Below are positions 8,412-62,306 of a DNA stretch of 64,000 nucleotides, in pieces. Where the stretch lies: positions 64,812 to 128,811 of the forward strand of contig CAWHRJ010000004.1 of NCBI GenBank assembly GCA_963831685.1, given 5' to 3'. The notes below the pieces were generated by a model, which made no database searches, was not told the DNA's origin, and worked only from the letters and a program-made list of their open reading frames with translations. A program made the translations under genes and the position numbers. This stretch comes from an uncultured Pseudomonadota bacterium. Lineage in GTDB: Bacteria; Myxococcota_A; Polyangia; Fen-1088. Each line of letters begins with the position of its first letter. Positions within the stretch are counted from its first letter, which is position 1.

Positions 8412-9982
8412 TTTCCTACAAGTTTGCTCGTCGCTCTTTCCTTCGCGGTCTGGGCGGGTCGGCGGCGATGATGGTTCCGCTGCTGCGCTCCATCGAGGCT
8501 CGCGCCGCCGGTGTCACCGCCCCTTTGCGGTTCTTGGTCATCCACCACCCGCTGGGGACGGCGTCGGGGCTCGCCAACTGGCGTCCGAACGCCAGCGCAA
8601 CCACGACCAACTTCACGCTCCCGGTGGAGAGCGCCCCGTTCCAGCCGCTCCAGAAGTACATGGTGATGGTCGACGGCGTGAACGTCGTCGCGGCGACCAG
8701 CCACTCGAGCGGCGGGACCAGCCCGGACACGAAGGGCGGCGGTCAGAATACGCATGAGGGCGGAATGGTCGCCATCATGACCGGGGTGCCGACCATCGGC
8801 ATGGTGGGGCAGGAGGATCACTGCGCCGGCGGTCCTTCGATCGATCAGATCCTCCTGCAACAGTCGGCCGGGCTCGGCGGGCCGGCCTTTGCGAAGCCGA
8901 CACCTTTTCCGTCACTGCAGCTGGCTGCCGACATCCGCTCCGATCGGGACGAGAAGGCGCCTCGGGTGTTGTCGTACCTGGCTCCCAAGAGCGGCGTGAG
9001 CGATCCGGACCAGGCTCGCCAGCCGCTCTATCCCGATACCTCACCGCTCGCCGTGTTCAACCGGATCTTCGGGGGTTCTCTGCCTACCGGAACGAACACA
9101 GCGCAGCTGCTGGCGCAAAAAGAGAGCGTCATCACCTACCTGAAGAGCGACTTGGCTCGCCTGCAGACATTGGTGCCGGCCAGCGAAAAGGACAGGATCA
9201 CGGCGCACACCGACGCGATCGCGCAGCTCGAGGCGAGCATTCAGCAGATGTACGGCATGACGACGCAGACATCGGTGTGCAGCAAGCCCAGCGCGCCCCC
9301 CGATTACTCGAATACCAGCTCCGGTAAACAGGGCTCGGGCTCCGTCTACAGCGACCTCGGTGGCGTCGATTACTACGTCCCCAATCAGCCCAGCAGCCAC
9401 CCGCACATCGATCTCGGCCAGACGCAGCTGAGATTGATCAAGGCGGCATTCCTGTGCGATCTGACCCGGGTCGCGACCTTCATGTGGTCGGCAGGAACCA
9501 ACTGGGTGGTGTTCCCGGGCACGTTCCAGGGGGCCACGATCGCCGGCAACCCCCAGTCCAGCCCCCACCATCCCCCCAGCCACTCCGGCGACGCCGCGAC
9601 GAACGGTTGGCTGAATCAGATCGACCAGCTCTACTCCTCCGCGACCTCCACCGTGCTGCAGGAGTTCGCCACGACGCCCGACATCGACGGGAACATGCTG
9701 CTCGACAACACGGTGGTCGTGTACCTGACCGAGGTCGCGCGCGCCTCCGATCACAACCAGCAGAACATGCCGCTGTTGATTTTTGGTGGGAAGAACACCA
9801 GGGTGAAGGGCGGCACGTACCTGAAGGTCACCGGCGGCTCTCTGAGCGCCCAGACGGGCGGCTCGGGAAACAGGCCGTTCAACGACGTCTGGTTGGCCCT
9901 GGCGCCGGTCTTTGGCGTGACCATGAACAGCCTAGGTGCCCAGAGCCAGTACACGGGCCCGCTTTCGGGCATCTTTTCCTAG
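8408..9982 (+). CDS. DUF1552 domain protein with twin-arginine signal
   Basis: GTG start overlaps the upstream stop (GTGA). Has a Tat-like RRSFLRGLGG and DLTRVATFMWSAG. This is the canonical partner of DUF1592 proteins. Confidence 0.85.
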   Translation: MISYKFARRSFLRGLGGSAAMMVPLLRSIEARAAGVTAPLRFLVIHHPLGTASGLANWRPNASATTTNFTLPVESAPFQPLQKYMVMVDGVNVVAATSHSSGGTSPDTKGGGQNTHEGGMVAIMTGVPTIGMVGQEDHCAGGPSIDQILLQQSAGLGGPAFAKPTPFPSLQLAADIRSDRDEKAPRVLSYLAPKSGVSDPDQARQPLYPDTSPLAVFNRIFGGSLPTGTNTAQLLAQKESVITYLKSDLARLQTLVPASEKDRITAHTDAIAQLEASIQQMYGMTTQTSVCSKPSAPPDYSNTSSGKQGSGSVYSDLGGVDYYVPNQPSSHPHIDLGQTQLRLIKAAFLCDLTRVATFMWSAGTNWVVFPGTFQGATIAGNPQSSPHHPPSHSGDAATNGWLNQIDQLYSSATSTVLQEFATTPDIDGNMLLDNTVVVYLTEVARASDHNQQNMPLLIFGGKNTRVKGGTYLKVTGGSLSAQTGGSGNRPFNDVWLALAPVFGVTMNSLGAQSQYTGPLSGIFS

Positions 9983-50638: not shown

Positions 50639-50751
50639 CGAGATCCCTACGATCTGACAGGATATCAGGAGGCCAAACTTCGTCGAGCCAGGGCCACCGG
50701 AGTCCGGCCCTTCGATCCTTGCCAGCGCCCGCCCGCGCGTATGATCCCGTC

Positions 50752-51558
50752 GTGCCTAGCGTGGGTCAGACCGGCTGGAGCCGCGCGAGGTGGCGGCCGG
50801 CGGTGACAGTCATCGTGCTCTGCCTGTTGGCCGGACGGAAGGCGCGGGCCGTCGACCCCTTCGAGATCCAGGTCTACGACGCTTCGATCAATCCCCCGAT
50901 GACGGCCGGGATCGAGCTGCACGTCAACTCGGTCGTGTCGGGGCTCGAGACGGCGCCACCACCCGAGCTGCCACCGAATCACCAAACCCACCTGACCGCT
51001 GAACCATCGCTCGGGCTCACGACTTGGTGGGAAGTGGGAGGGTACGTCCAGTCGACGATTCGACGCGACGGTGGCTTCGACTTCGCCGGGGTGAAGCTGC
51101 GCTCGAAGCTCGCGCTTCCACCGGCTCCGGGAAGCCCGTTCCGGTGGGCCGTCAACTTCGAGGTGTCATGGTTGCCCGCAGCGTACGACGCCGCTCGATG
51201 GGGCGCCGAGGTCCGACCCATCGCGACGGCGTCGGTTGCAAGCGGGCGACTTTTCTTCGCCGTGAACCCGATCCTGGACTGGGATCTCGCCGGCCCGAAC
51301 GCGGCCGCCAGGCCCGCTCTGGAGCCCGCGGTCGCCGGGCTCTTCGTCGTCGAGAATCTTCTCTCGGTGGGGTTCGAGTACTACGCGAGCTTCGGGCCAA
51401 TCGGACGCTGGCTACCCGCGGCTGCGGAGGAGCAGTACCTGTACGAGGTCATCAACCTCGACCGGTGGAAAAGATGGGACCTCAATTTCGGCGTGGGGGA
51501 GGGGCTCACGGACGCCTCGAACCGCTTTGTTGTCAAAGCGATTTTGGGCTTTCGCTGA
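50752..51558 (+). CDS. hypothetical outer-membrane beta-barrel protein
   Basis: Signal-like RWRPAVTVIVLCLLAGRKARA, beta-strand periodicity, and terminal AILGFR. The start is uncertain (track TTG 50719; GTG 50752 or 50761). Confidence 0.5.
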   Translation: MPSVGQTGWSRARWRPAVTVIVLCLLAGRKARAVDPFEIQVYDASINPPMTAGIELHVNSVVSGLETAPPPELPPNHQTHLTAEPSLGLTTWWEVGGYVQSTIRRDGGFDFAGVKLRSKLALPPAPGSPFRWAVNFEVSWLPAAYDAARWGAEVRPIATASVASGRLFFAVNPILDWDLAGPNAAARPALEPAVAGLFVVENLLSVGFEYYASFGPIGRWLPAAAEEQYLYEVINLDRWKRWDLNFGVGEGLTDASNRFVVKAILGFR

Positions 51559-51602
51559 AGCCGGATTGTCGGAAATGTCCGTGGCAAATTTAGCGCCCTG
51601 CT

Positions 51603-51651
51603 CCTGCCTGCTTTCGATGAGGTGGGGGTACTAGAGGCACCAATAGGCGGA
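51603..51651 (+). promoter_or_regulatory. conserved upstream element, copy 1 (cctgcctgctttcga-N5-tgggggtact-N12-aggcgga)
   Basis: 32 of 49 positions, in three exact blocks (15, 10 and 7 nt) with identical spacing, match 58350-58398. Ends 22 nt before ATG 51674. The reading-frame relation differs between the copies, so the conservation is not coding. Confidence 0.6.
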
Positions 51652-51673
51652 AGTCCGCCCTCGCTGGACGCCG

Positions 51674-52516
51674 ATGCGAATCTCGCCCCTCAATCGGATT
51701 TTGATGACGCTCGTCGTGACCGCGGCCCTCTACGGCTGCGCCCAGAGCGAGCCGATCAATCTCTTCGTCCTCCTGCCGGACGGCGGTGGACAGTCCGGAG
51801 GGGCGACGGGAAGCGGGACCGGCGGCGACAGCTCGAGCAGCGGGGGGAACCAGGGCTCCGGCTCGGGCGGTACCGGAACTACCGGGAATGGCGGTTCCGT
51901 CGGGACGGGCGGCTCCGGTACCGGGGGCACCGTGAGCGGTGCCGGCGGCTCAACCGGCAGCGGTGGCTTGACCGGAAGTGGCGGGTCGGTCGGAACGGGC
52001 GGCTCCGCCACCGGGGGCGTGACGGGCAGCGGGGGCCTGACGGGCAGCGGTGGCCTCACAGGCAGCGGTGGCCTCACAGGCAGCGGTGGCCTCACAGGCA
52101 GCGGTGGCTCCATCGGAAGCGGGGGCACGACGGGCACCGGCGGATCGACCGGCTCGGGCGGGAAGGGCGGAACCACGGGGACGGGTGGCTCGACCGGCTC
52201 GGGCGGCACGACGGGCACCGGCGGCGCCGGTGGCGCGGCGGCCCCGACTTTCACGCAGGTCTACAAGCAGATCTTGACCGTCTACTGCGCGGGAAGTCAG
52301 TGCCACAACCCTGGGTCGCAGCGCGGGATGGCGTTCGCGACGCAATCGGGTGCCTACACCTGCGTATTGACCGTGGTGACACCGGGGAACGGCGCCAACT
52401 CCAGCTTCTACAAGACGGTCAACGGTGGGTCGATGCCCCCGGGTGGACCGAAACTGTCGGCCGCCAACCTCGCGCTCATCAAAGCCTGGATAGACGCCGG
52501 CGCGCTCAACAACTGA
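51674..52516 (+). CDS. lipoprotein with GSGGxT repeat linker and PSCyt-like domain, CX4CH variant
   Basis: Lipobox LYGC and a long Gly/Ser/Thr linker, then ILTVYCAGSQCHNPG, GSMPPGG and LIKAWIDAGALNN. Confidence 0.7.
   Translation: MRISPLNRILMTLVVTAALYGCAQSEPINLFVLLPDGGGQSGGATGSGTGGDSSSSGGNQGSGSGGTGTTGNGGSVGTGGSGTGGTVSGAGGSTGSGGLTGSGGSVGTGGSATGGVTGSGGLTGSGGLTGSGGLTGSGGLTGSGGSIGSGGTTGTGGSTGSGGKGGTTGTGGSTGSGGTTGTGGAGGAAAPTFTQVYKQILTVYCAGSQCHNPGSQRGMAFATQSGAYTCVLTVVTPGNGANSSFYKTVNGGSMPPGGPKLSAANLALIKAWIDAGALNN
52025..52114 (+). repeat. five tandem 18-nt units (ggcagcggtggcctcaca) encoding GSGGLT
   Basis: The three central units (52043, 52061, 52079) are identical; the flanking units are slightly diverged. 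Confidence 0.9.
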
Positions 52517-52571
52517 CGGGCCGCCGCGGGCTCCGCGAGATATATTTGTCACGGCGTGAGCTGATGTCCGG

Positions 52572-53576
52572 ATGGTGACAGCCCCCATCGTCTTGCTCAT
52601 CGCCGTGGCGAACACCCCCGACGGCATCGCCGCGGCGAATGAAGCTGCCGCCGCATGTTTGCAGGCGCTACCGTCCGGAGCGAAGACGGTGCTCCGCACC
52701 GTCCCGAAGGCTCCCGACGACGCCGACGTCAGCGTGGCCGCGGCGGCAGCCGGCGCGACGGCGACCGTGGTCGTGACCTGGCGAGATGCCGACCACTTGG
52801 TGAGCGACGTCCGCGTCCGCTCGACGCCGCCCGACGGAATCGTGCGGCAGACCGAGCGCAACGTCGTTTTCAGCGCGCGCGATCAGCCGGTCGAGCGTGG
52901 CCGAGCTCTCGGTTTGGTGATCGCGTCCATTCTGGACGAGGATTGGACCGCCGGGGCCAGGACGGCCAGCCCGGCGGCCGTCGTGCCCGTCGGTGTCGGG
53001 GGCGGAGCGGTCGACACGGAGGTCCCCGCGGCGATCGCCGGAGCGCACGGGCTGCCCTCGCGGGAGGCGCCGCGTTGGGCCTTGGAGGCGAACGTCATCA
53101 CGGCCGTGGACGCGCAGGAGGACTTCGACGACGCCATCGGGGGGCTCGTCGCCCTGCGGCGGTCGTTGACCCCCCGATGGGCGCTTCGGGCAGGGTTGGG
53201 TCTCCGCGTCGCAGATCTGGACGGCGCCAACGCCACGGCGCGCACCACAATGGGGTCCTTGGGCGTCGTGTGGGCCAGCCGCGGGTTCGCGGAAGGAGAG
53301 CGCGTGGGTTTCGCTGTACGAGCCGACCTTCTTGGGGTCCGCGAGGTGATCAAGCGGCAAGGGAACGACGATCGAGGGACCGTTGGGCTCTGGACGGTCG
53401 GCGCGGACGTCGTCGGGCAGATTGGTCTCGGGCTCTCGTCGGGGACGAGCCTGCTCGGGAGCGCCGGCGTCGAAGGCTTTGCCAGCGGCGAGAGCCTAGT
53501 CTCGGACGGGCAGGCGCCGGCCACGCTCTCGCGCGGCCGCCTCATCTTCGAGCTGGGCGTGCTGTCACGCTTTTAG
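52572..53576 (+). CDS. hypothetical protein, possible outer-membrane barrel domain at C-terminus
   Basis: Earliest possible start is ATG 52572, because an in-frame stop lies at 52557. The C-terminal half has beta-strand periodicity and ends GVLSRF. There is no clean signal peptide. Confidence 0.5.
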   Translation: MVTAPIVLLIAVANTPDGIAAANEAAAACLQALPSGAKTVLRTVPKAPDDADVSVAAAAAGATATVVVTWRDADHLVSDVRVRSTPPDGIVRQTERNVVFSARDQPVERGRALGLVIASILDEDWTAGARTASPAAVVPVGVGGGAVDTEVPAAIAGAHGLPSREAPRWALEANVITAVDAQEDFDDAIGGLVALRRSLTPRWALRAGLGLRVADLDGANATARTTMGSLGVVWASRGFAEGERVGFAVRADLLGVREVIKRQGNDDRGTVGLWTVGADVVGQIGLGLSSGTSLLGSAGVEGFASGESLVSDGQAPATLSRGRLIFELGVLSRF

Positions 53577-53626
53577 CTCAGCCTGCTGCCTGATGGTTCG
53601 AGGTACTCTATAAAGGAAGCGCTTCC

Positions 53627-54292
53627 ATGGCTGCCGTTCGTCCACACAAAACCGTGCTCAGCGTCGTCCCGGGCGCCGAAGCGTCCCGGGCGGAACGCCG
53701 TCCGCGCCGCAGCGATGACGAGATCCTGGCGGGGCTCCGGCGCGGCGACCTCGAGGTGGCGGAGGACTTCTACTGGCGCGTCAAACCGGTCGTGGATCGG
53801 ACGGTTCGCCGGTTGATGGGGCGGATGGACAGCGACGGAGAGGATCTCATTCAGATTGCGCTCATCCAGCTCATCGAGTCGGTGGCCCATTACCGCGGCG
53901 AGTGTGCCCTCGATGCCTGGGTCTCCACCGTCTCGGCACACGTCGTCTACAAGCACATCCGCCGCCGGCGGCTGGAGCGGACAATCTTCGCCGCGGCGCT
54001 GGACGACGACGAAGAGATCGCGGTCAGCCCGAGGTCCAGCAGCGTCGACGCGATGTCGCTTCGCCGGGCGCTCGGGCAGGTCGCCGAGCATCTGTGCACG
54101 ATGCGGGAGGAGAGATCGTGGGCCTTCCTGTTGCACGACGTCTGTGGCTACTCCCTCGACGAGGTCGCGCACATCTGCGGGATCTCGGTCGTCGCCGCCC
54201 AGAGTCGGCTCGTCCGTGGGCGCCGCGAGATCCACGACCGGATCGCGGCTGATCCTCGCCTGGCGGAGATTCTCGATCGGGGTGAGCCGTGA
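53627..54292 (+). CDS. ECF-type RNA polymerase sigma-70 family factor
   Basis: Region 2 (DLIQIALIQLIESVAHY...LDAWVSTVSAHVVYKHIRRRR) and region 4 HTH (YSLDEVAHICGISVVAAQSRLVRGRREI). Confidence 0.85.
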   Translation: MAAVRPHKTVLSVVPGAEASRAERRPRRSDDEILAGLRRGDLEVAEDFYWRVKPVVDRTVRRLMGRMDSDGEDLIQIALIQLIESVAHYRGECALDAWVSTVSAHVVYKHIRRRRLERTIFAAALDDDEEIAVSPRSSSVDAMSLRRALGQVAEHLCTMREERSWAFLLHDVCGYSLDEVAHICGISVVAAQSRLVRGRREIHDRIAADPRLAEILDRGEP

Positions 54293-55293
54293 CCACGTTC
54301 CGCTACGCCGAGCGCGCGGCCCGACTGCTCCGTGCGGCACGCGCGCGGATCCGGCCGCACCGGTCGGCGCCTCCCGAGAACGCCATCGCGGCCATCGCCG
54401 AGGCGATCGAGCGCACCGCCTCTCGGCAGCGGCGGCGGCGGGTGGCGACGGCGGCGGGGTTCGCGACCGCGATCCTGGGCGCCCTCGCGCTCGTGGCCGC
54501 CGCACCCTGGAGATCACCTGGAACTATCGCGCTCGTGCCGATGCGGGTGCCAGAGAACGTGCCGAGAGCGACGCTCGTGGCCGGCTCCGAGGTGCGCGCC
54601 ACGCTGGCGAGCGCGGACGGGCAGCTCCGGCCCCTCCCGGCCGGACACGCGTGGGTTTCGGACGAGCGGCTGCAGACCGACGCGCTGCCGGTCGCGCTGG
54701 CGGGTGAGGACGGTACGACGGTCGACCTCGAGCCGCGGTCCGACCTGAAGTTGTTGCGCGCCGACGCCGAGCAGTGGCTTCGCCTGGGACGCGGTGCTGT
54801 CGCCCTGCACGTCGCAAAGTTGAAAGCCGGGCAGCGCTTCGTCGTCTTGACACCCGACGCAGAGGTGGAGGTCCGCGGCACGCGCTTTCACGTGGCGCTC
54901 GCTTCACCCGACGAGAACTGCGGCCATGGCACGCCCACGCGCGTCGTCGTGGACGAAGGCGTCGTCGTGGTCCGCTCGGCGGCGGGGGAGGTTCGCGTTC
55001 CCGCAGGACAACGCTGGCCGGCCGCCTGTCCGGCGCCGCCTGCGGCCGAACCGCCGCCCCCATCGGTCGCGATGAGGCGCCTGCCGAGACCCGTGCTGGC
55101 GACGCCTGCTTCGACCCTGGCGACGGAGAACGACCTTTTCGGTGCCGCTTTGAGAGCCGAGCGCTCCGGAGATCGGGCCGAGGCCGCTCACCTGCTCGAC
55201 GCCCTGCTGACGAGATTCCCTCAGACCCCACTCCGAGAGAGCGCGCAGCGTGCGCGGGCGCGCATGACGGCAACCACGCTGCCGTCGCGATAG
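54289..55293 (+). CDS. FecR-domain anti-sigma factor (single-pass)
   Basis: GTG overlaps the sigma stop (GTGA). One TM helix (AAGFATAILGALALVAAA). FecR-like beta region GQRFVVLTPDAEVEVRGTRFHV. Confidence 0.75.
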   Translation: MTTFRYAERAARLLRAARARIRPHRSAPPENAIAAIAEAIERTASRQRRRRVATAAGFATAILGALALVAAAPWRSPGTIALVPMRVPENVPRATLVAGSEVRATLASADGQLRPLPAGHAWVSDERLQTDALPVALAGEDGTTVDLEPRSDLKLLRADAEQWLRLGRGAVALHVAKLKAGQRFVVLTPDAEVEVRGTRFHVALASPDENCGHGTPTRVVVDEGVVVVRSAAGEVRVPAGQRWPAACPAPPAAEPPPPSVAMRRLPRPVLATPASTLATENDLFGAALRAERSGDRAEAAHLLDALLTRFPQTPLRESAQRARARMTATTLPSR

Positions 55294-55332
55294 GCGTGAT
55301 CGTCAGCCGCCTCCATTCGAGTCCAAGATTCT

Positions 55333-56520
55333 GTGCCTCGCCGCTTCCGCCATTCGGTTCTGATAGTCATTGGTGTCTTCTCGGCCATCGCGCTGGCGCC
55401 TCGTCGTGCCCACGCCTACGCGTGGATGATCGGTCACGGTTACGCCGGCTGCGCGGGCTGTCACCTCGATCCGTCCGGCGCCGGCCTCTTGAACGAGTTC
55501 GGCCGAGAGGAGGCCGGCGACACCCTACGCTCCCGCTATGGCAGCGACCCGCCGCCGGTCGAGCCATTTTTCGGTCTCTGGAAGAATCCCGACTGGCTTC
55601 TCACCGGGGGAAGTTTTCGCGATGGGATCTTCTTCATGAAGGCAGGCGCAGCGCCCTACTCCCAGCAGAACATCTTGATGCAGGCCGACCTGCGGGTGGG
55701 CATCGACGCGGGCCGCTGGCGAGCCGCCGGAACTCTCGGCGTCCTGCCGAACGGAGACTTCCCAGCGGCGGTGGTGACGTCCAGCGGCGGCCCCAGCCTG
55801 GTGGCGCGGGAGTATTGGGTCGGCTACACGTTCGAGAATGACGCCATCTTGCTGCGTGCCGGCCGGATCAACGTGCCCTACGGCATACGATCGATCGAGC
55901 ACACGCTGTTCGTGCGGCAGGCGACGCAGACCGATATCAACGACACGCAAGAACACGGGATAGCCCTGTCTTTGCGATGGAGCGGACTCCGTGGCGAGCT
56001 CATGGCCATCGCCGGCAACTATCAGGAGTCTCCCGATGCCTACCGCCAGCGCGGCTACAGCGGGTACCTGGAATGGAGCCCGCAAGGCCGCTACGCCTTC
56101 GGCGTCAACAGCCTGGTGACCTACGCCAAACAGGACGTCTCCCTTGGGGTCGCCAATCTTCGCCAGGCTCACGGTCTGACGGTGCGGGCGTCGCCGGTCG
56201 AGAGGCTGGTCTTGCTCGGCGAGGCCGACTACGTGGCAGAAGGCTTGTCGGGCCAGCCGCACTGGAATGGCCTGGCGACGATGCTGCAGGCAGACTTCGA
56301 GCCCTGGCAAGGGTTACATTTCATCGGCACGGGCGAGACCTACGGCTCGGGGCAGCCCACGACCGAAACCTCCTGGAGCGTGTGGGGGAGCGTGGCGTGG
56401 TTCTTCTACTCGCACGTCGATGTTCGGTTCGACTACGTCCATCAGAGTCTCTCCACGCCTCCCCCCGAGGGGCGCATTCCAATCGAGACATACTTGGTCC
56501 AGCTCCATCTCTTCTTGTGA
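55333..56520 (+). CDS. outer-membrane beta-barrel-like protein with N-terminal CxxCH motif (paralog of 13082-14251)
   Basis: Signal peptide ending AHA, then CAGCHLDPSGAGLLNEFGREEAGDT. Shares MQAD, LRAGRINVPYGIRSIEH and LLGEAD with the paralog. Terminal VQLHLFL. Confidence 0.7.
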   Translation: MPRRFRHSVLIVIGVFSAIALAPRRAHAYAWMIGHGYAGCAGCHLDPSGAGLLNEFGREEAGDTLRSRYGSDPPPVEPFFGLWKNPDWLLTGGSFRDGIFFMKAGAAPYSQQNILMQADLRVGIDAGRWRAAGTLGVLPNGDFPAAVVTSSGGPSLVAREYWVGYTFENDAILLRAGRINVPYGIRSIEHTLFVRQATQTDINDTQEHGIALSLRWSGLRGELMAIAGNYQESPDAYRQRGYSGYLEWSPQGRYAFGVNSLVTYAKQDVSLGVANLRQAHGLTVRASPVERLVLLGEADYVAEGLSGQPHWNGLATMLQADFEPWQGLHFIGTGETYGSGQPTTETSWSVWGSVAWFFYSHVDVRFDYVHQSLSTPPPEGRIPIETYLVQLHLFL

Positions 56521-56528
56521 GGCCGTCC

Positions 56529-57038
56529 ATGCGGACCAAATCCCTATCTACGCTGCTGATGGTTGGGTCAGCCGGGCTCTGTCTGACGCTCGAGCCCGCC
56601 CCGGCACGGGCCATTTCTCGCTTTCCAGGCAACATGATCGACTATTTCACGCCGCCTCTCGGATACACGCCGCCCTGCCGTGTTTGTCACATCGATGGGA
56701 CAACTGGCTCGGGCAGCGTTCGAACGCCGTTCGGCATATCGATGCTCGCGCACGGGTTGACGAGCGGCCGGGGCACGCTCACCCCTGCCCTCGACGCCCT
56801 CAAGGCAGACAACGTCGACAGTGACGGAGATGGTGTGTCGGACATCGACGAGCTCGTCATGAACACCGATCCGAACACCAGCGCCGACGTCCCGCTGTCG
56901 GCGAGCGGTCCTTCTTACGGCTGCGCGGTCGCGGCCGGGCAGGGCGGAGAACCGGCCGGGCTGGCCTTGGGAGCCCTCTTCGTGGCCGCTCTCGTAGTCA
57001 GGCGCCGCCGTCCTCGTCCGCGCGTCGACGGCGAATGA
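56529..57038 (+). CDS. secreted CxxCH protein with thrombospondin-type-3-like Ca-binding repeat and MYXO-CTERM-like tail
   Basis: Signal peptide, PPCRVCHIDG and DSDGDGVSDIDE. The tail is YGCAVAAG + hydrophobic helix + RRRRPRPR. Confidence 0.7.
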   Translation: MRTKSLSTLLMVGSAGLCLTLEPAPARAISRFPGNMIDYFTPPLGYTPPCRVCHIDGTTGSGSVRTPFGISMLAHGLTSGRGTLTPALDALKADNVDSDGDGVSDIDELVMNTDPNTSADVPLSASGPSYGCAVAAGQGGEPAGLALGALFVAALVVRRRRPRPRVDGE

Positions 57039-57057
57039 CAGAGCAAGCAGGCGCTGG

Positions 57058-57582
57058 TTACCTCTTCCCTTCCGACACTCGTGTGGGCGAGGCCGATCTG
57101 GGCGCCTCGGTCCCGCGAAGGAAGTAGCTCTTGAGTCGCGCCTTGTCGCCCGCCGACAGCTTCGCCGTGGGATGCATTGGGAAGACGTAGAACCAGGGCG
57201 GCATTTCGCCGGACTCCACCTGCTCCCAGCAGGTCTCTAGATCGTCCCCGCGCTCGTCCTCGTCGACACCGCGCCACTCGGAAAAGTTGAGATGCGTGCG
57301 ACCCTTGTGGACGTCGCGGGCCATCAGCCAGGAGCCTGGTGCGAGGCGACTGTAAAGGGGCCATCGCGTTTCGTTCGTGTGGCAGTCGAAGCATGCGCGT
57401 CTCAGGATGGCCGCGACCTCGGCTGGGGCATCGATCTGAAAGCGCTCGGGCGGGTTCGTCCCAACGTCTTTGACTGGGATGAACTGGATTCCAGCCCCCA
57501 CCACGACCGACCCGAGCCCAGCGAGCTTGACCGCCCTCTTGATGCGAGAGCGCACGTCCGAACCACGACCGACCACGCTCAA
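57058..57582 (-). CDS. haem-binding-domain (Haem_bd family) membrane-anchored protein
   Basis: N-terminal TM anchor. CFDCHTNETRWPLYSRLAPGSWLMARDVHKGRTHLNFSEW and EMPPWFY match the Pfam Haem_bd pattern as I remember it. Confidence 0.8.
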   Translation of the reverse strand: MSVVGRGSDVRSRIKRAVKLAGLGSVVVGAGIQFIPVKDVGTNPPERFQIDAPAEVAAILRRACFDCHTNETRWPLYSRLAPGSWLMARDVHKGRTHLNFSEWRGVDEDERGDDLETCWEQVESGEMPPWFYVFPMHPTAKLSAGDKARLKSYFLRGTEAPRSASPTRVSEGKR

Positions 57583-58064
57583 CCGGCCGGCGTGCGGGTG
57601 CTCGCGGAGACCGGCTGGCTGCCATCGACGGTGATGCTGCCGTCCGCGGCGATCGTCACCGCGTAGTGCTGGAGCGGCGACCGCGCCGGTCCGCTCGTCG
57701 CGCTTCCGTTGCCGTCGAACGTGGAGCCGTGGCAGGGGCAGCTCAGCCCGGTGGCGATCTTGTCGGCGCTGTCATCGAGTAGGCATCCGGCATGCGTGCA
57801 TACCGCGGACATCGCGTAGACGCCGTTCGCGTCCCGCGCCACAACGAAGTTCGTCATGACCAGGAGTGATCCGACCGCCAGGGCCGATATGTTCCCCGCA
57901 CCGACGGGGCCGGTCGGTGGCGAGCCGGTCGGATTCATACAACCCGATACCGCGCCGCCCATGACCACCAGACCCGTCGCGGCGCCGGCCAGAATCAGCA
58001 GCTCGCGGCGATTGACCGCCCGTTTGGAACAAGTGGAACAGCGGTCCGTTTCGTCGTTGGCCAT
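57579..58064 (-). CDS. Rieske [2Fe-2S] domain lipoprotein with Tat-type signal
   Basis: NRRELLILAGAATG twin-Arg signal with lipobox VSGC. Cluster ligands CTHAGC ... CPCHGS. Overlaps the downstream gene by 4 nt. Confidence 0.85.
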   Translation of the reverse strand: MANDETDRCSTCSKRAVNRRELLILAGAATGLVVMGGAVSGCMNPTGSPPTGPVGAGNISALAVGSLLVMTNFVVARDANGVYAMSAVCTHAGCLLDDSADKIATGLSCPCHGSTFDGNGSATSGPARSPLQHYAVTIAADGSITVDGSQPVSASTRTPAG

Positions 58065-58349
58065 CGCCTGCCCTCCGCGAGCTCAGTGCCGTCGGGTCTC
58101 GATGAGCAGGCAGATGCGGACACCGATCACGAATCCGGATCTAGACAGCTCGAGCTGTTCGGATCGCAGATCTGATGCCCGAGCAATCGGACGTCGTCAG
58201 GCAACCCACGCATCGGTCCGTCGTGCGATCGCAGCGTGGGAGCGGCCTCGCCATACGCAGAATGTCTACTCGCCCGACCCGGCTTTGCAGGCGGTCGAGC
58301 TGGTCGTCGTCCTCCCCCGGTCTGAGCCGGCAGAAAAAAACAGCCGACG

Positions 58350-58398
58350 CCTGCCTGCTTTCGAAGGCCTGGGGGTACTGGATGCTGCAACAGGCGGA
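58350..58398 (+). promoter_or_regulatory. conserved upstream element, copy 2 (cctgcctgctttcga-N5-tgggggtact-N12-aggcgga)
   Basis: See 51603-51651. Ends 18 nt before ATG 58417. Lies in the divergent region between the Rieske operon and 58417-59859. Confidence 0.6.
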
Positions 58399-58416
58399 GA
58401 TCTGCCTAGCTCCAGG

Positions 58417-59859
58417 ATGGTTCCGCACAGTCCAGGTTCCTTCCGGCGGTGTCGCTGGGCTGCGGCGATGGCGCTGCTGTTCGTGTCCGCGCGTGCCGAG
58501 GCCGCGGGCAAGCGGATCGGCGTTCCCGAGTTCGAGGGGCCGCACGAGGCGGAGGTTCGCATGAAGGTGATGCAACTGCTCCAGGCGCACGGCTTCGAAC
58601 CGGTTCGCTCTCGCGAGATGCAGGAGGCGATGCTTCTCACCGGCGCCACCCTCGACTCGGACGACGACCTGAAGACGCTGGCCAAGGAGCTGGGGCTCTC
58701 GGCGATCGTGACCGGCGAGGTGGGACCCAGGCGGGCGAAGATCGTCGTCCACGATGGCGGCGAGGGGTCGATCCTGGGTGACGCCTCGTTCAGCGGCGCC
58801 AACTCACGCGAGCTGGTGGATCAGGTGGGGCTCACCTTCTGGAAGAGGCTCGGCGCCGACGTGGAACGCGGGCACTTGCCTGCCGGCGCGGGCGGCGAAA
58901 AGGGCAAGGCCGACTCCGACGAGGCTCCGCCGCCCAGGAACACGAAGAAGAGACGGAGATTCAGGATGGAGGAGGCGCCGCCCGAAGAGACGGCCGCGCG
59001 CCCCGTTCCGCCGGGGGACCCCTGGCTCGACTTCGAGCTGGGCCTGGGCGGGTTGAATCGCAGCCTGACGTTCACTCAGAGCGCCGCCGCGCAAGGCCCC
59101 GTCCCCTTGCGCCCCTACACTCTGGGCTTCGGGCCGATCGCCATCGCGAAGCTGGTGCTGTTCCCCTGGATGGCTGGAAAGGTCGGCAATTTCGGGCTGG
59201 AGGCCGAGATCGAGCAGGGGCTCGGGATCTCGACGCCGTCGAGCGGCGGGAGCTTCAGCAACACCGTGCACGAGTACGCCGGAGGTTTCCGGTACCGCGT
59301 GCCGTTCGCGACCACCGACGACGTCTTCTTTTCGCTGGGGCTCGGCGAGGAAGCCTTCACCTTCAACGGTCCCAACCGATCGAGTCTGGCGACCCCCGAC
59401 ACCATCTACCATTACACGCGCCTTGGAACAGGGATGCATGTGACGATCTCCGACGGGATCGGCGTCTCGTTCGGCGGGGGCTACCGTTACATTTCCAACC
59501 GCGGCGGGTCTCAGATCTCGCAGGACTTCTTTCCGCACCTGACGGTGGCGGGCGCAGACGCCGACATCGTGGCCCGCTACGCTCTCAGCGGGATGTTCGA
59601 AGTGCGCGCTGGACTGCAGTGGCGCCGCTATTGGTACGCCCCGCATTCGCAACCGGGAGACCTGGTCATGGCCGACGGCGCGGTCGATCAGTCGTTCGCC
59701 TTCACCGTGGGCATCGCCGTTCTGCTCGGCGTCAGCAGCGCTCCCAAAGCCGCAGGGGGCGCCGAGGCCCCGCCTCCGCCACCGCCCCCCAAGCCGAACG
59801 CCCATTCGCCGGAGCAGCCGTCCGATGACGACGCCAGCAGTGGACCAGATAGCGACTGA
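58417..59859 (+). CDS. hypothetical secreted/outer-membrane protein
   Basis: Signal peptide (AAMALLFVSARAEA). N-terminal alpha/beta domain (KRIGVPEFEGP...), a Lys/Glu/Pro-rich spacer, a beta-rich C-terminal half, and a Pro-rich acidic tail. Start chosen at ATG 58417, beyond the Rieske gene. Confidence 0.6.
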   Translation: MVPHSPGSFRRCRWAAAMALLFVSARAEAAGKRIGVPEFEGPHEAEVRMKVMQLLQAHGFEPVRSREMQEAMLLTGATLDSDDDLKTLAKELGLSAIVTGEVGPRRAKIVVHDGGEGSILGDASFSGANSRELVDQVGLTFWKRLGADVERGHLPAGAGGEKGKADSDEAPPPRNTKKRRRFRMEEAPPEETAARPVPPGDPWLDFELGLGGLNRSLTFTQSAAAQGPVPLRPYTLGFGPIAIAKLVLFPWMAGKVGNFGLEAEIEQGLGISTPSSGGSFSNTVHEYAGGFRYRVPFATTDDVFFSLGLGEEAFTFNGPNRSSLATPDTIYHYTRLGTGMHVTISDGIGVSFGGGYRYISNRGGSQISQDFFPHLTVAGADADIVARYALSGMFEVRAGLQWRRYWYAPHSQPGDLVMADGAVDQSFAFTVGIAVLLGVSSAPKAAGGAEAPPPPPPPKPNAHSPEQPSDDDASSGPDSD

Positions 59860-59862
59860 GAT

Positions 59863-60099
59863 GTGCCACTGCGTGAAGTTCCACGACCCGCACATCCTCG
59901 CGTCGCTCCCCGCAGCGACGCCCTGATCCTGGTCACCTGCTTCGTCTTGACGGTGGTTTTCGACATGGTCGTCGCGGTCTCGGTGGGTGTCGTTCTCGCC
60001 GCCCTCCTGTTCGCGCGGCGGATGGCGGAGCTCACGCACGCCCGGTTGACTGGGGACGCGGAGCGGGGCGGGACACCGACGAAGATTCCGGCGGTCTGA
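59863..60099 (+). pseudogene. relic of a SulP-family anion transporter (last TM helices only)
   Basis: PRSDALILVTCFVLTVVFDMVVAVSVGVVLAALLFARRMAELT matches the conserved segment that precedes the STAS domain in SulP transporters. The roughly 430 upstream residues and the STAS domain are absent. Confidence 0.55.
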
Positions 60100-60389: not shown

Positions 60390-62306
60390 ATGGCGCCGAT
60401 GAGATCTGATATGAGGATCGTGTCCGTCCGGCGCGCGTCGTTGGTGTCGGGTTCCGTCATCGCGGGGCTCGCTCTGCTGGCGCTCGGATGCGACTTTCGC
60501 GCCGCGCAGTTCACCACCGAGGGACCCGGCGCGGGCGCCGCCGGCTCGACCGGCAGTCTGAAGCTCGGTACCGGCGGGAGCTCGACGAAGGGATCGGGCA
60601 GCGCCAGCGGGGCCGGATCGGTCGACGGCGGCGCGTCCGGTGCCGCGGGGCAGGGTGGCGCGGGGGCGACCGGTTGTCCCGCGCACTGTCCGAGCGGCCA
60701 GATCTGCCTGGGCGTGAGCTGTCAACCCGATCCCTGCCTCGCCGCCTCGGCGATGAGCTGCGCGTCGGGGACCACCTGCCGCGCCAGCTGCGTGGCGGTC
60801 GCCGACCGCTGCGCCGGCGTCACCTGCCCGCAAGGCGACACCTGCGTCGCCGGCTCCTGCGTCGCCGGCTGCTTCGCGCAGCCGTGCAACGGCGTCACCT
60901 GCCCGACGGGGCAGTACTGCAGCCCGGGGAGCGGCAAGTGCGTCCCGGTCAACGCTTGCGACGCCGCCTGCGGCGCCGGGATGGCCTGCAACCTCTCCTG
61001 CGTCGCCCCGAACCCGTGCGCAGGCGTCACCTGCGCCGCCAATCAGGTCTGCGCGGGCGGCAAATGCGTGGAGAACCTGTGCGCGGGCGTCACCTGTCCG
61101 ACCGGCAGCCTCTGCAGCAACGGGACCTGCCTGGACACTTGCAAGTGCAGCAGCAACTGCGGGACCGCCGGCAAGTGCGTGCAGGCCAGCTGCGTCTGCA
61201 CGCCGACCTGTCCCTCCGACGGAAGCCGGGCCGGGATGGACGACGGTTGCAGCGGCAAGTGCCCCTGCCCGACCGGCAGCACGCAGGCGACGAACGGTTG
61301 CTGCATGCCGAACTGCCCGGCCGACGGAAGCCGCGGCGACATGTCCGACGGGTGCGGCAAGACCTGCGCTTGCCCGAGCGGCGACGTCACCTACCAGGGC
61401 GCCTGCTGCAAGCCCAACTGCCCCAGCGACGGGAGCGAGGGCGGCAAGTCCGACGGCTGCGGCAACACCTGCAGCTGTGCCAAGGGGACGACGCTCTACA
61501 TGGGCGCCTGCTGCACCCCGAATTGCCCCACCGACGGGAGTCACGCCGGCATGTCCGACGGGTGCGGCAAGACCTGCGCCTGCCCGAGCGGCGACGTCAC
61601 CTACCAGGGCGCCTGCTGCAAGCCCAACTGCCCCAGCGACGGGAGCGAGGGCGGCAAGTCCGACGGCTGCGGCAACACCTGCAGCTGTGCCAAGGGGACG
61701 ACGCTCTACATGGGCGCCTGCTGCACCCCGAATTGCCCCACCGACGGCAGCCGCGGCGACATGTCCGACGGCTGCGGCAAGACGTGCGCCTGCCCGACCG
61801 GCGAGGTCACTTACAAGGCGGCCTGCTGTAAGCCCAACTGCCCCAGCGACGGGAGCGAGGGTGGCAAGTCCGACAGCTGCGGCGGGACGTGCGCCTGCCC
61901 GACCGGCGAGTCGATCTACAACGGCAGCTGCTGCAAGACGAACTGCCCGACTGACGGCAGCCGCGCCGGGATGTCGGACGGCTGCGGCAAGAGCTGCGCC
62001 TGCCCGACCGGCGAGACCTCCTACCAGAACGCCTGCTGCGAGCCCTACTGTCCCAGCGACGGGACCTGCGGCCAGAGCGACGGATGCGGCAGCACCTGCG
62101 GCTGCGCGGGCGGCGGCACCTGCAAGGTTGGCCTCTGCCCCGGCAAGACCTGCTCGCCCGCCTGCGGCTGCGGCGAGATCTGCAACAACGGACAGTGCCT
62201 GGGGATCATCTGCAGCCCGGACGTCGTCCAGTGCGGCTGCGGCTGTTGCAACCCCGGCGACAGCTGCGTGGCCGGACAGTGCATGCAGGGGATCAGCATC
62301 GGGTAG
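60390..62306 (+). CDS. large Cys-rich repeat lipoprotein (four GVTC-type modules + nine 35-aa CC-x-PNCP-x-DGS modules)
   Basis: Lipobox ALGC and a Gly/Ser linker. N-terminal C-x-GVTCP-x-G-x2-C-x2-G-x-C modules, then nine units CC.PNCP.DGS.G..SDGCG..C.C..G...Y.G. Confidence 0.8.
   Translation: MAPMRSDMRIVSVRRASLVSGSVIAGLALLALGCDFRAAQFTTEGPGAGAAGSTGSLKLGTGGSSTKGSGSASGAGSVDGGASGAAGQGGAGATGCPAHCPSGQICLGVSCQPDPCLAASAMSCASGTTCRASCVAVADRCAGVTCPQGDTCVAGSCVAGCFAQPCNGVTCPTGQYCSPGSGKCVPVNACDAACGAGMACNLSCVAPNPCAGVTCAANQVCAGGKCVENLCAGVTCPTGSLCSNGTCLDTCKCSSNCGTAGKCVQASCVCTPTCPSDGSRAGMDDGCSGKCPCPTGSTQATNGCCMPNCPADGSRGDMSDGCGKTCACPSGDVTYQGACCKPNCPSDGSEGGKSDGCGNTCSCAKGTTLYMGACCTPNCPTDGSHAGMSDGCGKTCACPSGDVTYQGACCKPNCPSDGSEGGKSDGCGNTCSCAKGTTLYMGACCTPNCPTDGSRGDMSDGCGKTCACPTGEVTYKAACCKPNCPSDGSEGGKSDSCGGTCACPTGESIYNGSCCKTNCPTDGSRAGMSDGCGKSCACPTGETSYQNACCEPYCPSDGTCGQSDGCGSTCGCAGGGTCKVGLCPGKTCSPACGCGEICNNGQCLGIICSPDVVQCGCGCCNPGDSCVAGQCMQGISIG
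61341..61747 (+). repeat. near-identical tandem duplication with 210-nt period inside the Cys-rich gene
   Basis: 61341-61537 equals 61551-61747 except for one mismatch (61370 t vs 61580 c). The stretch 61381-61537 is identical to 61591-61747. Confidence 0.9.

Follow-up and report, generated by a model that had tools for sequence, protein, structure and literature searches.

What is the short sequence that stands, nearly unchanged, before two genes 6.7 kb apart in the genome of an uncultured member of the Polyangia? The question is raised by a stretch of 64,000 nucleotides (nt) of contig CAWHRJ010000004.1 (assembly GCA_963831685.1), which we refer to as the window and which has a G+C content of 68.8%. 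An earlier reading of the letters alone (the sequence-only reading) had pointed out three conserved blocks at 51603-51651 and 58350-58398, and had offered either a sigma factor promoter or a shared element of the 5′ untranslated region (5′-UTR) as an explanation. Our analysis favours the first of these. Blocks 1 and 2 are very probably a promoter read by a sigma factor of the extracytoplasmic function (ECF) type that is encoded at 53627-54292, a sigma factor that would be autoregulated and would define a local regulon. Comparison with related genomes supports this strongly, as the motif is bipartite, of fixed spacing, co-oriented with the genes that follow it, and present before the sigma gene in all 12 lineages compared.

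The three blocks and their identical spacing are found in both copies as described. Exact matches to CCTGCCTGCTTTCGA-N5-TGGGGGTACT occur at 51603-51632 and 58350-58379, and AGGCGGA (block 3) follows 12 nt further on in each case, with 7 of the 12 intervening bases identical. The two-block sequence is found nowhere else in the window, even when up to 3 mismatches are allowed (100 shuffles give an expectation of 0.00). A repeat search aligned 51603-51659 with 58350-58406, a length of 57 nt at 79% identity, and the likeness of the two copies drops off sharply at the block edges. Copy 1 occupies a 115-nt gap (51559-51673) that is bounded by the stop codon of gene 50719-51558 and by ATG 51674, whereas copy 2 is found in the 352-nt intergenic stretch between two divergent genes, which start at 58064 (minus strand) and at ATG 58417; the distances of 22 nt to ATG 51674 and of 18 nt to ATG 58417, as first given, are right. 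The two genes also flank a sigma/anti-sigma pair, with Pfam identifying an ECF sigma factor at 53627-54292 and a FecR-type anti-sigma factor at 54289-55293.

The functional core of the element is shorter than 49 nt and can be written as GCCTGCT-N14-GGTACT. It is found exactly at 51606, 53581 and 58353, always on the plus strand, and a fourth site with 1 mismatch (GGCACT), absent from the sequence-only reading, lies at 58111-58085 on the minus strand. These are 4 sites with at most 1 mismatch in 64 kb, against 0.00 expected from shuffles; at 2 mismatches a single extra match appears, located inside a gene, with 1.0 expected. All four sites share their direction with a gene that starts 19-41 nt downstream, and we name them after these genes as types a (lipoprotein, copy 1), b (sigma factor), c (Rieske protein) and d (a 480-residue protein, copy 2). 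The type b site falls inside the 50-nt gap that separates the sigma gene from the gene before it, here called X. It had been set aside as a look-alike with different spacing, which is wrong for the core, since GCCTGCT-N14-GGTACT is exact at 53581-53607; this site is the key evidence for the predicted autoregulation.

In the mechanism that we propose, GCCTGCT would act as a −35-like and GGTACT as a −10-like element, with GCCTG-N16-GGTAC as the conserved core, giving four promoters within 7 kb. Promoter Pa would drive the lipoprotein gene at 51674, the minus-strand promoter Pc the operon of the Rieske and haem-binding-domain proteins, and Pd the gene at 58417. Pb would drive the sigma/anti-sigma operon, probably including the genes for a porin-like and a MYXO-CTERM protein, and would make the system autoregulatory. 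The membrane-spanning FecR-type anti-sigma factor would keep the sigma factor inactive until an envelope signal frees it, and the freed sigma factor would then transcribe from all four promoters including its own, resulting in positive feedback. The predicted start of transcription is ~6-8 nt beyond GGTACT, which would place block 3 in the first ~20 nt of the lipoprotein and 58417 leaders. If the nature of the targets (Rieske, haem-binding-domain and CxxCH proteins) is a guide, it suggests a response to redox, haem or metal conditions in the envelope.

These features agree with what has been described for the class. Autoregulation, a need for promoters close to the consensus and a location next to the target genes are common among ECF sigma factors (PMC7826278, PMC7776599), and searches for their promoters have used a 7-nt and a 5-nt block separated by a spacer of 15-18 nt (PMC7776599). 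The 7-nt and 5-6-nt blocks found here are 14-15 nt apart (~16 nt between hexamers) and fit that bipartite shape. A motif with a defined orientation, a copy upstream of the sigma gene, further copies at neighbouring genes and an adjacent anti-sigma gene together are the signature used to predict ECF promoters. No sigma-70-type promoter, for which the consensus is TTGACA-N17-TATAAT, was predicted in 51300-60000. A sigma-54 promoter was considered and rejected by inspection, as the blocks do not fit the consensus GG-N10-GC (TGGCAC-N5-TTGC).

Strong evidence comes from relatives. The sigma protein has 1,413 homologues at E <= 1e-20, and those with names come from Polyangia genomes assembled from metagenomes. 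Together with the MYXO-CTERM domain, the nearest relatives assign the window to the Polyangia (Myxococcota). We compared loci whose sigma homologues share 88, 86, 81, 77, 76, 68, 64, 62, 57 and 51% identity with that of the window, together with one extra locus (L005, sigma 89%) that was found by a DNA motif scan. The order X, sigma gene, FecR gene is the same in every compared locus. Twelve non-redundant regions upstream of the sigma gene (window, L001, L002, L004, L005, L009, L011, L013, L015, L016, L017 and L020) were aligned, and in 12 of 12, over a range of sigma identity of 51-100%, GCCTG-N16-GGTAC is invariant, its two parts a fixed distance from each other. Between the end of the motif and the start of the sigma gene there are 10-20 nt. 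The other invariant intergenic bases are a T located 4 bases before GGTAC, a T located 3 bases after it and the TG of the start codon; the spacer and the rest of the intergenic sequence vary, and a conserved stretch further upstream in the alignment is the C-terminal coding sequence of X. The spacing is 14 nt in each of 33 curated sites, the information content of which is highest at ctGCCTGCT and GGTACT; one discarded match with 2 mismatches in L011/L012 had a spacing of 15. Variants of the first block include GCCTGCT, GCCTGCC, GCCTGAA and GCCTGGC.

The motif also follows the other target genes. According to blastp, it precedes orthologues of all four genes (types a to d) in the closer relatives: the lipoprotein in L001, L002, L004, L005, L006, L009, L013 and L015, and the 480-residue protein in L001-L004, L006 and L007. 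It is located 21-23 nt before the start of the Rieske orthologues of L001, L003, L004 and L005 and of the gene at the same position in L015, and the porin orthologue of L009 has its own motif with two mismatches. Every match with 0-1 mismatches, in the window and in the compared loci, lies upstream of a co-oriented gene or open reading frame (ORF), with secure start codons 10-48 nt downstream. This association persists although the genes have been rearranged. In L001, L003, L004, L005 and L009, the Rieske gene comes next after the FecR gene and shares its strand; in the window it is inverted and paired with the Haem_bd gene, with the porin-like and MYXO-CTERM genes between it and the FecR gene, and its own motif is nevertheless retained, GGCACT carrying the one mismatch. 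In L004, gene d is found 5 kb upstream of the sigma gene, and the lipoprotein gene follows the Rieske gene in L009. The target genes have kept the motif despite these changes of order, and the flanking intergenic sequence is not conserved. From this motif, its spacing, orientation and position, and its conservation together with the genes, we infer that the four sites depend on the adjacent sigma factor.

Two similar copies of 57 nt within a few kilobases might also be taken for a dispersed repeat of the repetitive extragenic palindromic (REP) or miniature inverted-repeat (MITE-like) kind, or for a recent local duplication that has no function. This explanation has next to no chance of being right. 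Copies a and d resemble their respective orthologues from other genomes more than they resemble each other, which marks them as old and maintained, and the abrupt end of the likeness between the two at the block edges speaks against a duplication as well. The copies in the window are all linked to genes, and none is present in the other 57 kb. We further scanned one genome per species from 185,579 species, as well as the metagenomes of the Joint Genome Institute (JGI), two collections that do not include the source genome, with the pattern CTGCCTGCTTTNNANNNNNTNNGGGTACT, which has 20 specified bases. The species genomes returned 4 matches, three of which belong to Polyangia metagenome-assembled genomes (L005-L007) and lie upstream of the same gene families; the fourth is from Niabella (50% G+C), and about 1 chance match is expected. 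The JGI scan returned 1 match, a Polyangia-type copy. The element is therefore not a dispersed repeat, since the scans found only Polyangia copies and one chance match, and the widespread repeat away from gene starts, which the sequence-only reading had named as the outcome that would speak against it, was not encountered.

Additional sites with 1-2 mismatches were seen before small ORFs in L009 and L010, for example at 16066-16040 and 8211-8185 of L009, both on the minus strand. Together with the motif variants of L016 and L017 described below, they suggest lineage-specific members of the regulon. The coordinates of the sites and genes in the window are given in Table 1.

Table 1. Predicted promoter sites and genes of the locus, in order of position in the window
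Feature	Coordinates	Strand	Description
Copy 1 / type a	51603..51651	+	−35-like GCCTGCT 51606-51612; −10-like GGTACT 51627-51632; AGGCGGA 51645-51651 in predicted leader; predicted ECF promoter and leader start of lipoprotein gene
Target gene a, lipoprotein	51674..52516	+	Lipobox LYGC signal peptide; Gly/Ser/Thr repeat linker; C-terminal CxxCH-containing domain
Gene X, 334 residues	52572..53576	+	Ends ...SRF; directly upstream of sigma gene in every lineage
Type b	53581..53607	+	GCCTGCT 53581-53587; GGTACT 53602-53607; 19 nt before ATG 53627; predicted autoregulatory promoter of ECF sigma gene
ECF sigma factor, 221 residues	53627..54292	+	Pfam Sigma70_r2, Sigma70_r4_2; TIGR02937 sigma70-ECF; PDB relatives SigE, SigH, RpoE, CnrH
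FecR-domain anti-sigma factor	54289..55293	+	Pfam FecR E = 3e-11; start overlaps sigma stop codon by 4 nt
Porin-like protein with CAGCH	55333-56520	+	Pfam/NCBIfam searches
MYXO-CTERM protein with CRVCH	56529-57038	+	Pfam/NCBIfam searches
Haem-binding-domain protein	57058-57582	−	Pfam Haem_bd E = 4e-37; overlaps Rieske gene; operon c 57058..58064
Rieske [2Fe-2S] protein	57579-58064	−	NCBIfam Rieske matches; Tat-like NRRELL signal; CTHAGC...CPCHGS
Type c	58085..58111	−	GCCTGCT 58111-58105; GGCACT 58090-58085; 20 nt before ATG 58064 (ORF 57579-58064); predicted promoter of Rieske/Haem_bd operon
Copy 2 / type d	58350..58398	+	GCCTGCT 58353-58359; GGTACT 58374-58379; AGGCGGA 58392-58398; predicted ECF promoter and leader start of gene 58417
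Target gene d, 480-residue secreted protein	58417..59859	+	Orthologues 60-74% identity

The element is non-coding. The sequence-only reading had reached the same conclusion by arguing that the ORFs overlapping the two copies differ in reading frame; this argument fails as worded, because the two mechanically called ORFs, 51622-52578 and 57856-59859, read both copies in one register (LPAF..GVL..A..GG), with the translations LLPAFDEVGVLEAPIGG and RLPAFEGLGVLDAATGG. The conclusion holds on other grounds. For copy 1, this frame contains no start codon from the stop at 51558 to block 1, and beyond the element it translates the real lipoprotein gene in the wrong frame, giving a meaningless Arg-rich sequence. 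Orthologous copies stand at offsets of 0, 1 or 2 (modulo 3) from the true start codon; most of them lack a start codon upstream in the frame concerned, and two carry an in-frame stop codon directly after GGTACT. The signal of G+C at third codon positions (GC3) of gene 58417 begins at about 58420. A coding explanation is ruled out by these frame offsets, missing start codons and in-frame stops and by the GC3 profile. The two mechanical ORFs are artefacts of the high G+C content: the first overlaps the true lipoprotein gene out of frame, and the second is an upstream extension of the true gene for the 480-residue protein over the divergent intergenic region and the Rieske gene.

Several points weigh against an ECF promoter and have to be taken into account. 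Most described ECF promoters have AAC in the −35 and CGT in the −10 element, a feature that is common among the groups but not universal. The −35-like block found here (GCCTGCY) lacks AAC and the −10-like block (GGTACT) lacks CGT, which makes the motif less like the described groups without excluding the class, because the feature is not universal. With just 10-20 nt between GGTACT and the start of the sigma gene, its leader would be very short or absent. Copies a and d moreover share more than a promoter needs (TTTCGA, TGGGGG and CCAAYAGGCGGA), and the promoter model alone leaves this unexplained. Finally, a paralogue encoded elsewhere in the genome could in principle be the cognate sigma factor.

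The last point leads to the idea that the motif is bound by some other DNA-binding protein, or is a promoter that belongs to another sigma factor, with a Trans_reg_C protein and a paralogous ECF sigma factor as candidates. The absence of the AAC and CGT signatures common in ECF promoters would be compatible with such a reader. In the more distant lineages, a motif variant is also found before a divergent gene for a 100-residue Trans_reg_C (winged-helix) protein next to X, in L016 (8985-8959, minus strand) and in L017 (~8950-8980, minus strand). The two blocks, however, are asymmetric, forming neither a palindrome nor a direct repeat, and they are strictly co-oriented with the downstream gene at promoter-like distances. 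Because so few nucleotides are left between the sigma-gene site and its start codon, there is no room for a separate promoter beyond it. The motif tracks the sigma gene over the whole range of 51-100% identity, but neither the window nor most of the loci contain the Trans_reg_C gene. We consider a different binding protein or sigma factor improbable, and the adjacent ECF sigma factor the best candidate for reading the motif.

Block 3 raises the separate question of whether the element acts as RNA, that is, as a cis-regulatory structure of the 5′-UTR resembling a riboswitch, as a stabilizing 5′ hairpin, or as a site for a small RNA or a protein. Selection on the transcript would then account for the likeness of copies a and d. 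Several genomes have indeed kept block 3 (CCAAYAGGCGGAAG) in their leaders of types a and d but not at types b and c, most leaders are able to form a short hairpin at this block, and an octamer, CGGAAGTC, recurs near the a and d promoters. The tests for structure nevertheless gave no support. Folding of 14 a- and d-type leaders was no better than that of shuffled sequences (z from −2.8 to +1.8, mostly about −0.8), and RNAalifold found 0 consensus pairs across the 14. Both hairpins named in the sequence-only reading can be drawn; a functional structure is unsupported, with folding and covariation at the level of the controls. The GGCGG/CCGCC hairpin pairs in 84% of cells, as do shuffles (also 84%), and 275 of 500 shuffles pair as well as the named hairpin. 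The covariation analysis of homologous leaders that had been proposed as a check equals its shuffled control (0.211 versus 0.200) and lends the hairpin no support. In addition, the distance from block 3 to GGTACT shifts between genomes, block 3 being 6-7 nt closer in L002 and L003.

The best-conserved parts of the element, blocks 1 and 2, are also present at types b and c. There they cannot be leader RNA, because the leaders are only 10-23 nt long, and the alternative of a shared 5′-UTR element is unsupported for these blocks, which lie upstream of the predicted transcription start. A search of Rfam returned nothing at the element, either at gathering thresholds over the whole window or at E <= 1 over 51400-58600. 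The only match, to Chloroflexus-1 (E = 0.29), lies inside the Rieske gene and was rejected as a chance hit. Taken as an account of the whole element, an RNA function is very unlikely, and the conserved feature of the leaders is the sequence CCAAYAGGCGGAAG(TC) itself, which pairs differently in different orthologues and is located ~18-20 nt upstream of a GGA-containing Shine-Dalgarno sequence. The octamer CGGAAGTC is found within ~35 nt of a and d promoters in the window, L002, L003, L004 and L015, and also at 12365 of L009. Its position varies from +1 to +17 after GGTACT and is once upstream of the motif; it is far commoner than the ~0.015 expected in those stretches, with part of the excess arising from orthology.

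The likeness of copies a and d beyond the core may go back to an ancient duplication of a promoter and leader cassette; it may also reflect features that set how strong the promoter is, or an additional regulatory site within the leader. A more far-reaching possibility, which we regard as speculative and rather unlikely, is that the TTTCGA and TGGGGG flanks and, most of all, CCAAYAGGCGGAAG form a second layer of control on two members of the regulon and that, in combination with the X-sigma-FecR genes and a −35 block without AAC, they belong to an uncharacterized envelope-signalling system of Polyangia with its own promoter code. Such a layer could work through a binding site, whether for a protein that recognizes RNA, a small RNA or a further DNA-binding regulator, and if it exists, the targets of the system would be the redox set of Rieske, haem and CxxCH proteins.

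The proteins encoded around the predicted ECF promoter sites give some indication of what the system might do. X, the sigma gene and the FecR gene are, by their constant order, the invariant core of the predicted system. Searches of Pfam, NCBIfam and PDB sequences returned no match for X. Its orthologues have ~314-371 residues and adjoin the sigma gene across 51-100% sigma identity, and X ends in a C-terminal Phe, as in outer-membrane barrels; it may be the signalling partner of the FecR-type protein. No ECF group could be assigned to the sigma factor with NCBIfam, where the generic sigma70-ECF superfamily is the one model that exceeds its cut-off. The porin-like and MYXO-CTERM genes are probably co-transcribed with the sigma and anti-sigma genes, because no motif of their own was found. 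In L011/L012 (68% sigma identity), the FecR gene is followed by genes for an 880-residue TonB_C protein, ExbB, ExbD and a second TonB_C protein, a hint that signalling across the envelope is energy-coupled in some members at least.

The lipoprotein has a weak NCBIfam match to the LIC11213 lipoprotein. Within its gene, ~10 tandem units of 18 nt (51934-52224) encode the GSGGLT-type Gly/Ser/Thr linker, the length of which varies between orthologues (proteins of 253-280 residues). Downstream of this gene, a terminator-like hairpin (52525-52547) is followed by AGATATATTT, the position of which is occupied by GATATAGT in orthologous loci, ~30 nt upstream of the start of X. Judged from its sequence and conservation, the GATATAGT box is probably a sigma-70-type −10 box (TATAGT) and not the tail of a terminator, and X, the sigma gene and the anti-sigma gene may be transcribed from it at a basal, housekeeping-type level. 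The 480-residue protein has no match in Pfam, NCBIfam or PDB sequences, and a search with its exact sequence returned no database record, probably as a result of another start codon having been called there. Further downstream, gene 60390-62306 encodes a secreted protein of 638 residues composed of Cys-rich repeats of ~38 residues (CPSDGS..SDGCG.TC.C..G...Y..ACC.PN), with no family match and with a GC3 of ~0.95, above that of the neighbouring genes.

The analysis provides a promoter consensus, GCCTGCY-N14-GGTACT, for an uncharacterized ECF sigma clade of the Polyangia (Myxococcota) that is known mostly from metagenome assemblies. It also provides a first predicted regulon, comprising a CxxCH lipoprotein, a Rieske protein presumably exported by the twin-arginine translocation (Tat) pathway with a haem-binding-domain protein, the 480-residue secreted protein and the sigma/anti-sigma operon, and probably the porin-like and MYXO-CTERM CxxCH proteins as well. 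A possible use of the −35 block, which has no AAC, is as an orthogonal part in ECF-based synthetic circuits. As a mechanism, this would be ordinary ECF autoregulation in a poorly studied lineage and not a new one.

Among known systems, leader RNAs such as riboswitches and stabilizing 5′ hairpins resemble the element in their proximity to start codons, their occurrence at unrelated genes and the potential for a hairpin after the last block. Unlike them, the element has no Rfam match, consensus structure or covariation, and its conserved blocks lie upstream of the predicted transcription start. A closer parallel is FecI/FecR cell-surface signalling, in which an ECF sigma factor is likewise paired with a FecR-domain transmembrane anti-sigma factor; the TonB/ExbB/ExbD genes downstream in L011/L012 add to this likeness. 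The window, however, lacks any TonB-dependent receptor that carries a signalling domain, the score for the NCBIfam FecR equivalog falls far short of the cut-off (17 versus 385 bits), and the predicted targets are envelope proteins of a redox or haem type (Rieske, Haem_bd, CxxCH) instead of an iron-siderophore transport operon.

The closest match is to autoregulated promoters of the ECF (group 4) members of the sigma-70 family. The blocks GCCTGCY and GGTACT differ from those of most described ECF groups, which are of the GGAAC/AAC and CGT types, and the very short sigma leader (10-20 nt) and the uncharacterized gene X of ~330 residues that always precedes the sigma gene are further differences. 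We found no paper that contains the motif, judging by titles and abstracts. In other respects the locus resembles autoregulated ECF systems, of which Escherichia coli rpoE P2 and Bacillus subtilis PsigW are examples and for which group motifs have been predicted (PMC7826278, PMC7776599). The motif is bipartite with a rigid spacer of ~16 nt between hexamers, one copy precedes the sigma operon and near-consensus copies precede neighbouring genes, the motif is conserved with the sigma clade, and a single-pass anti-sigma factor is co-encoded by a gene that overlaps the sigma gene.

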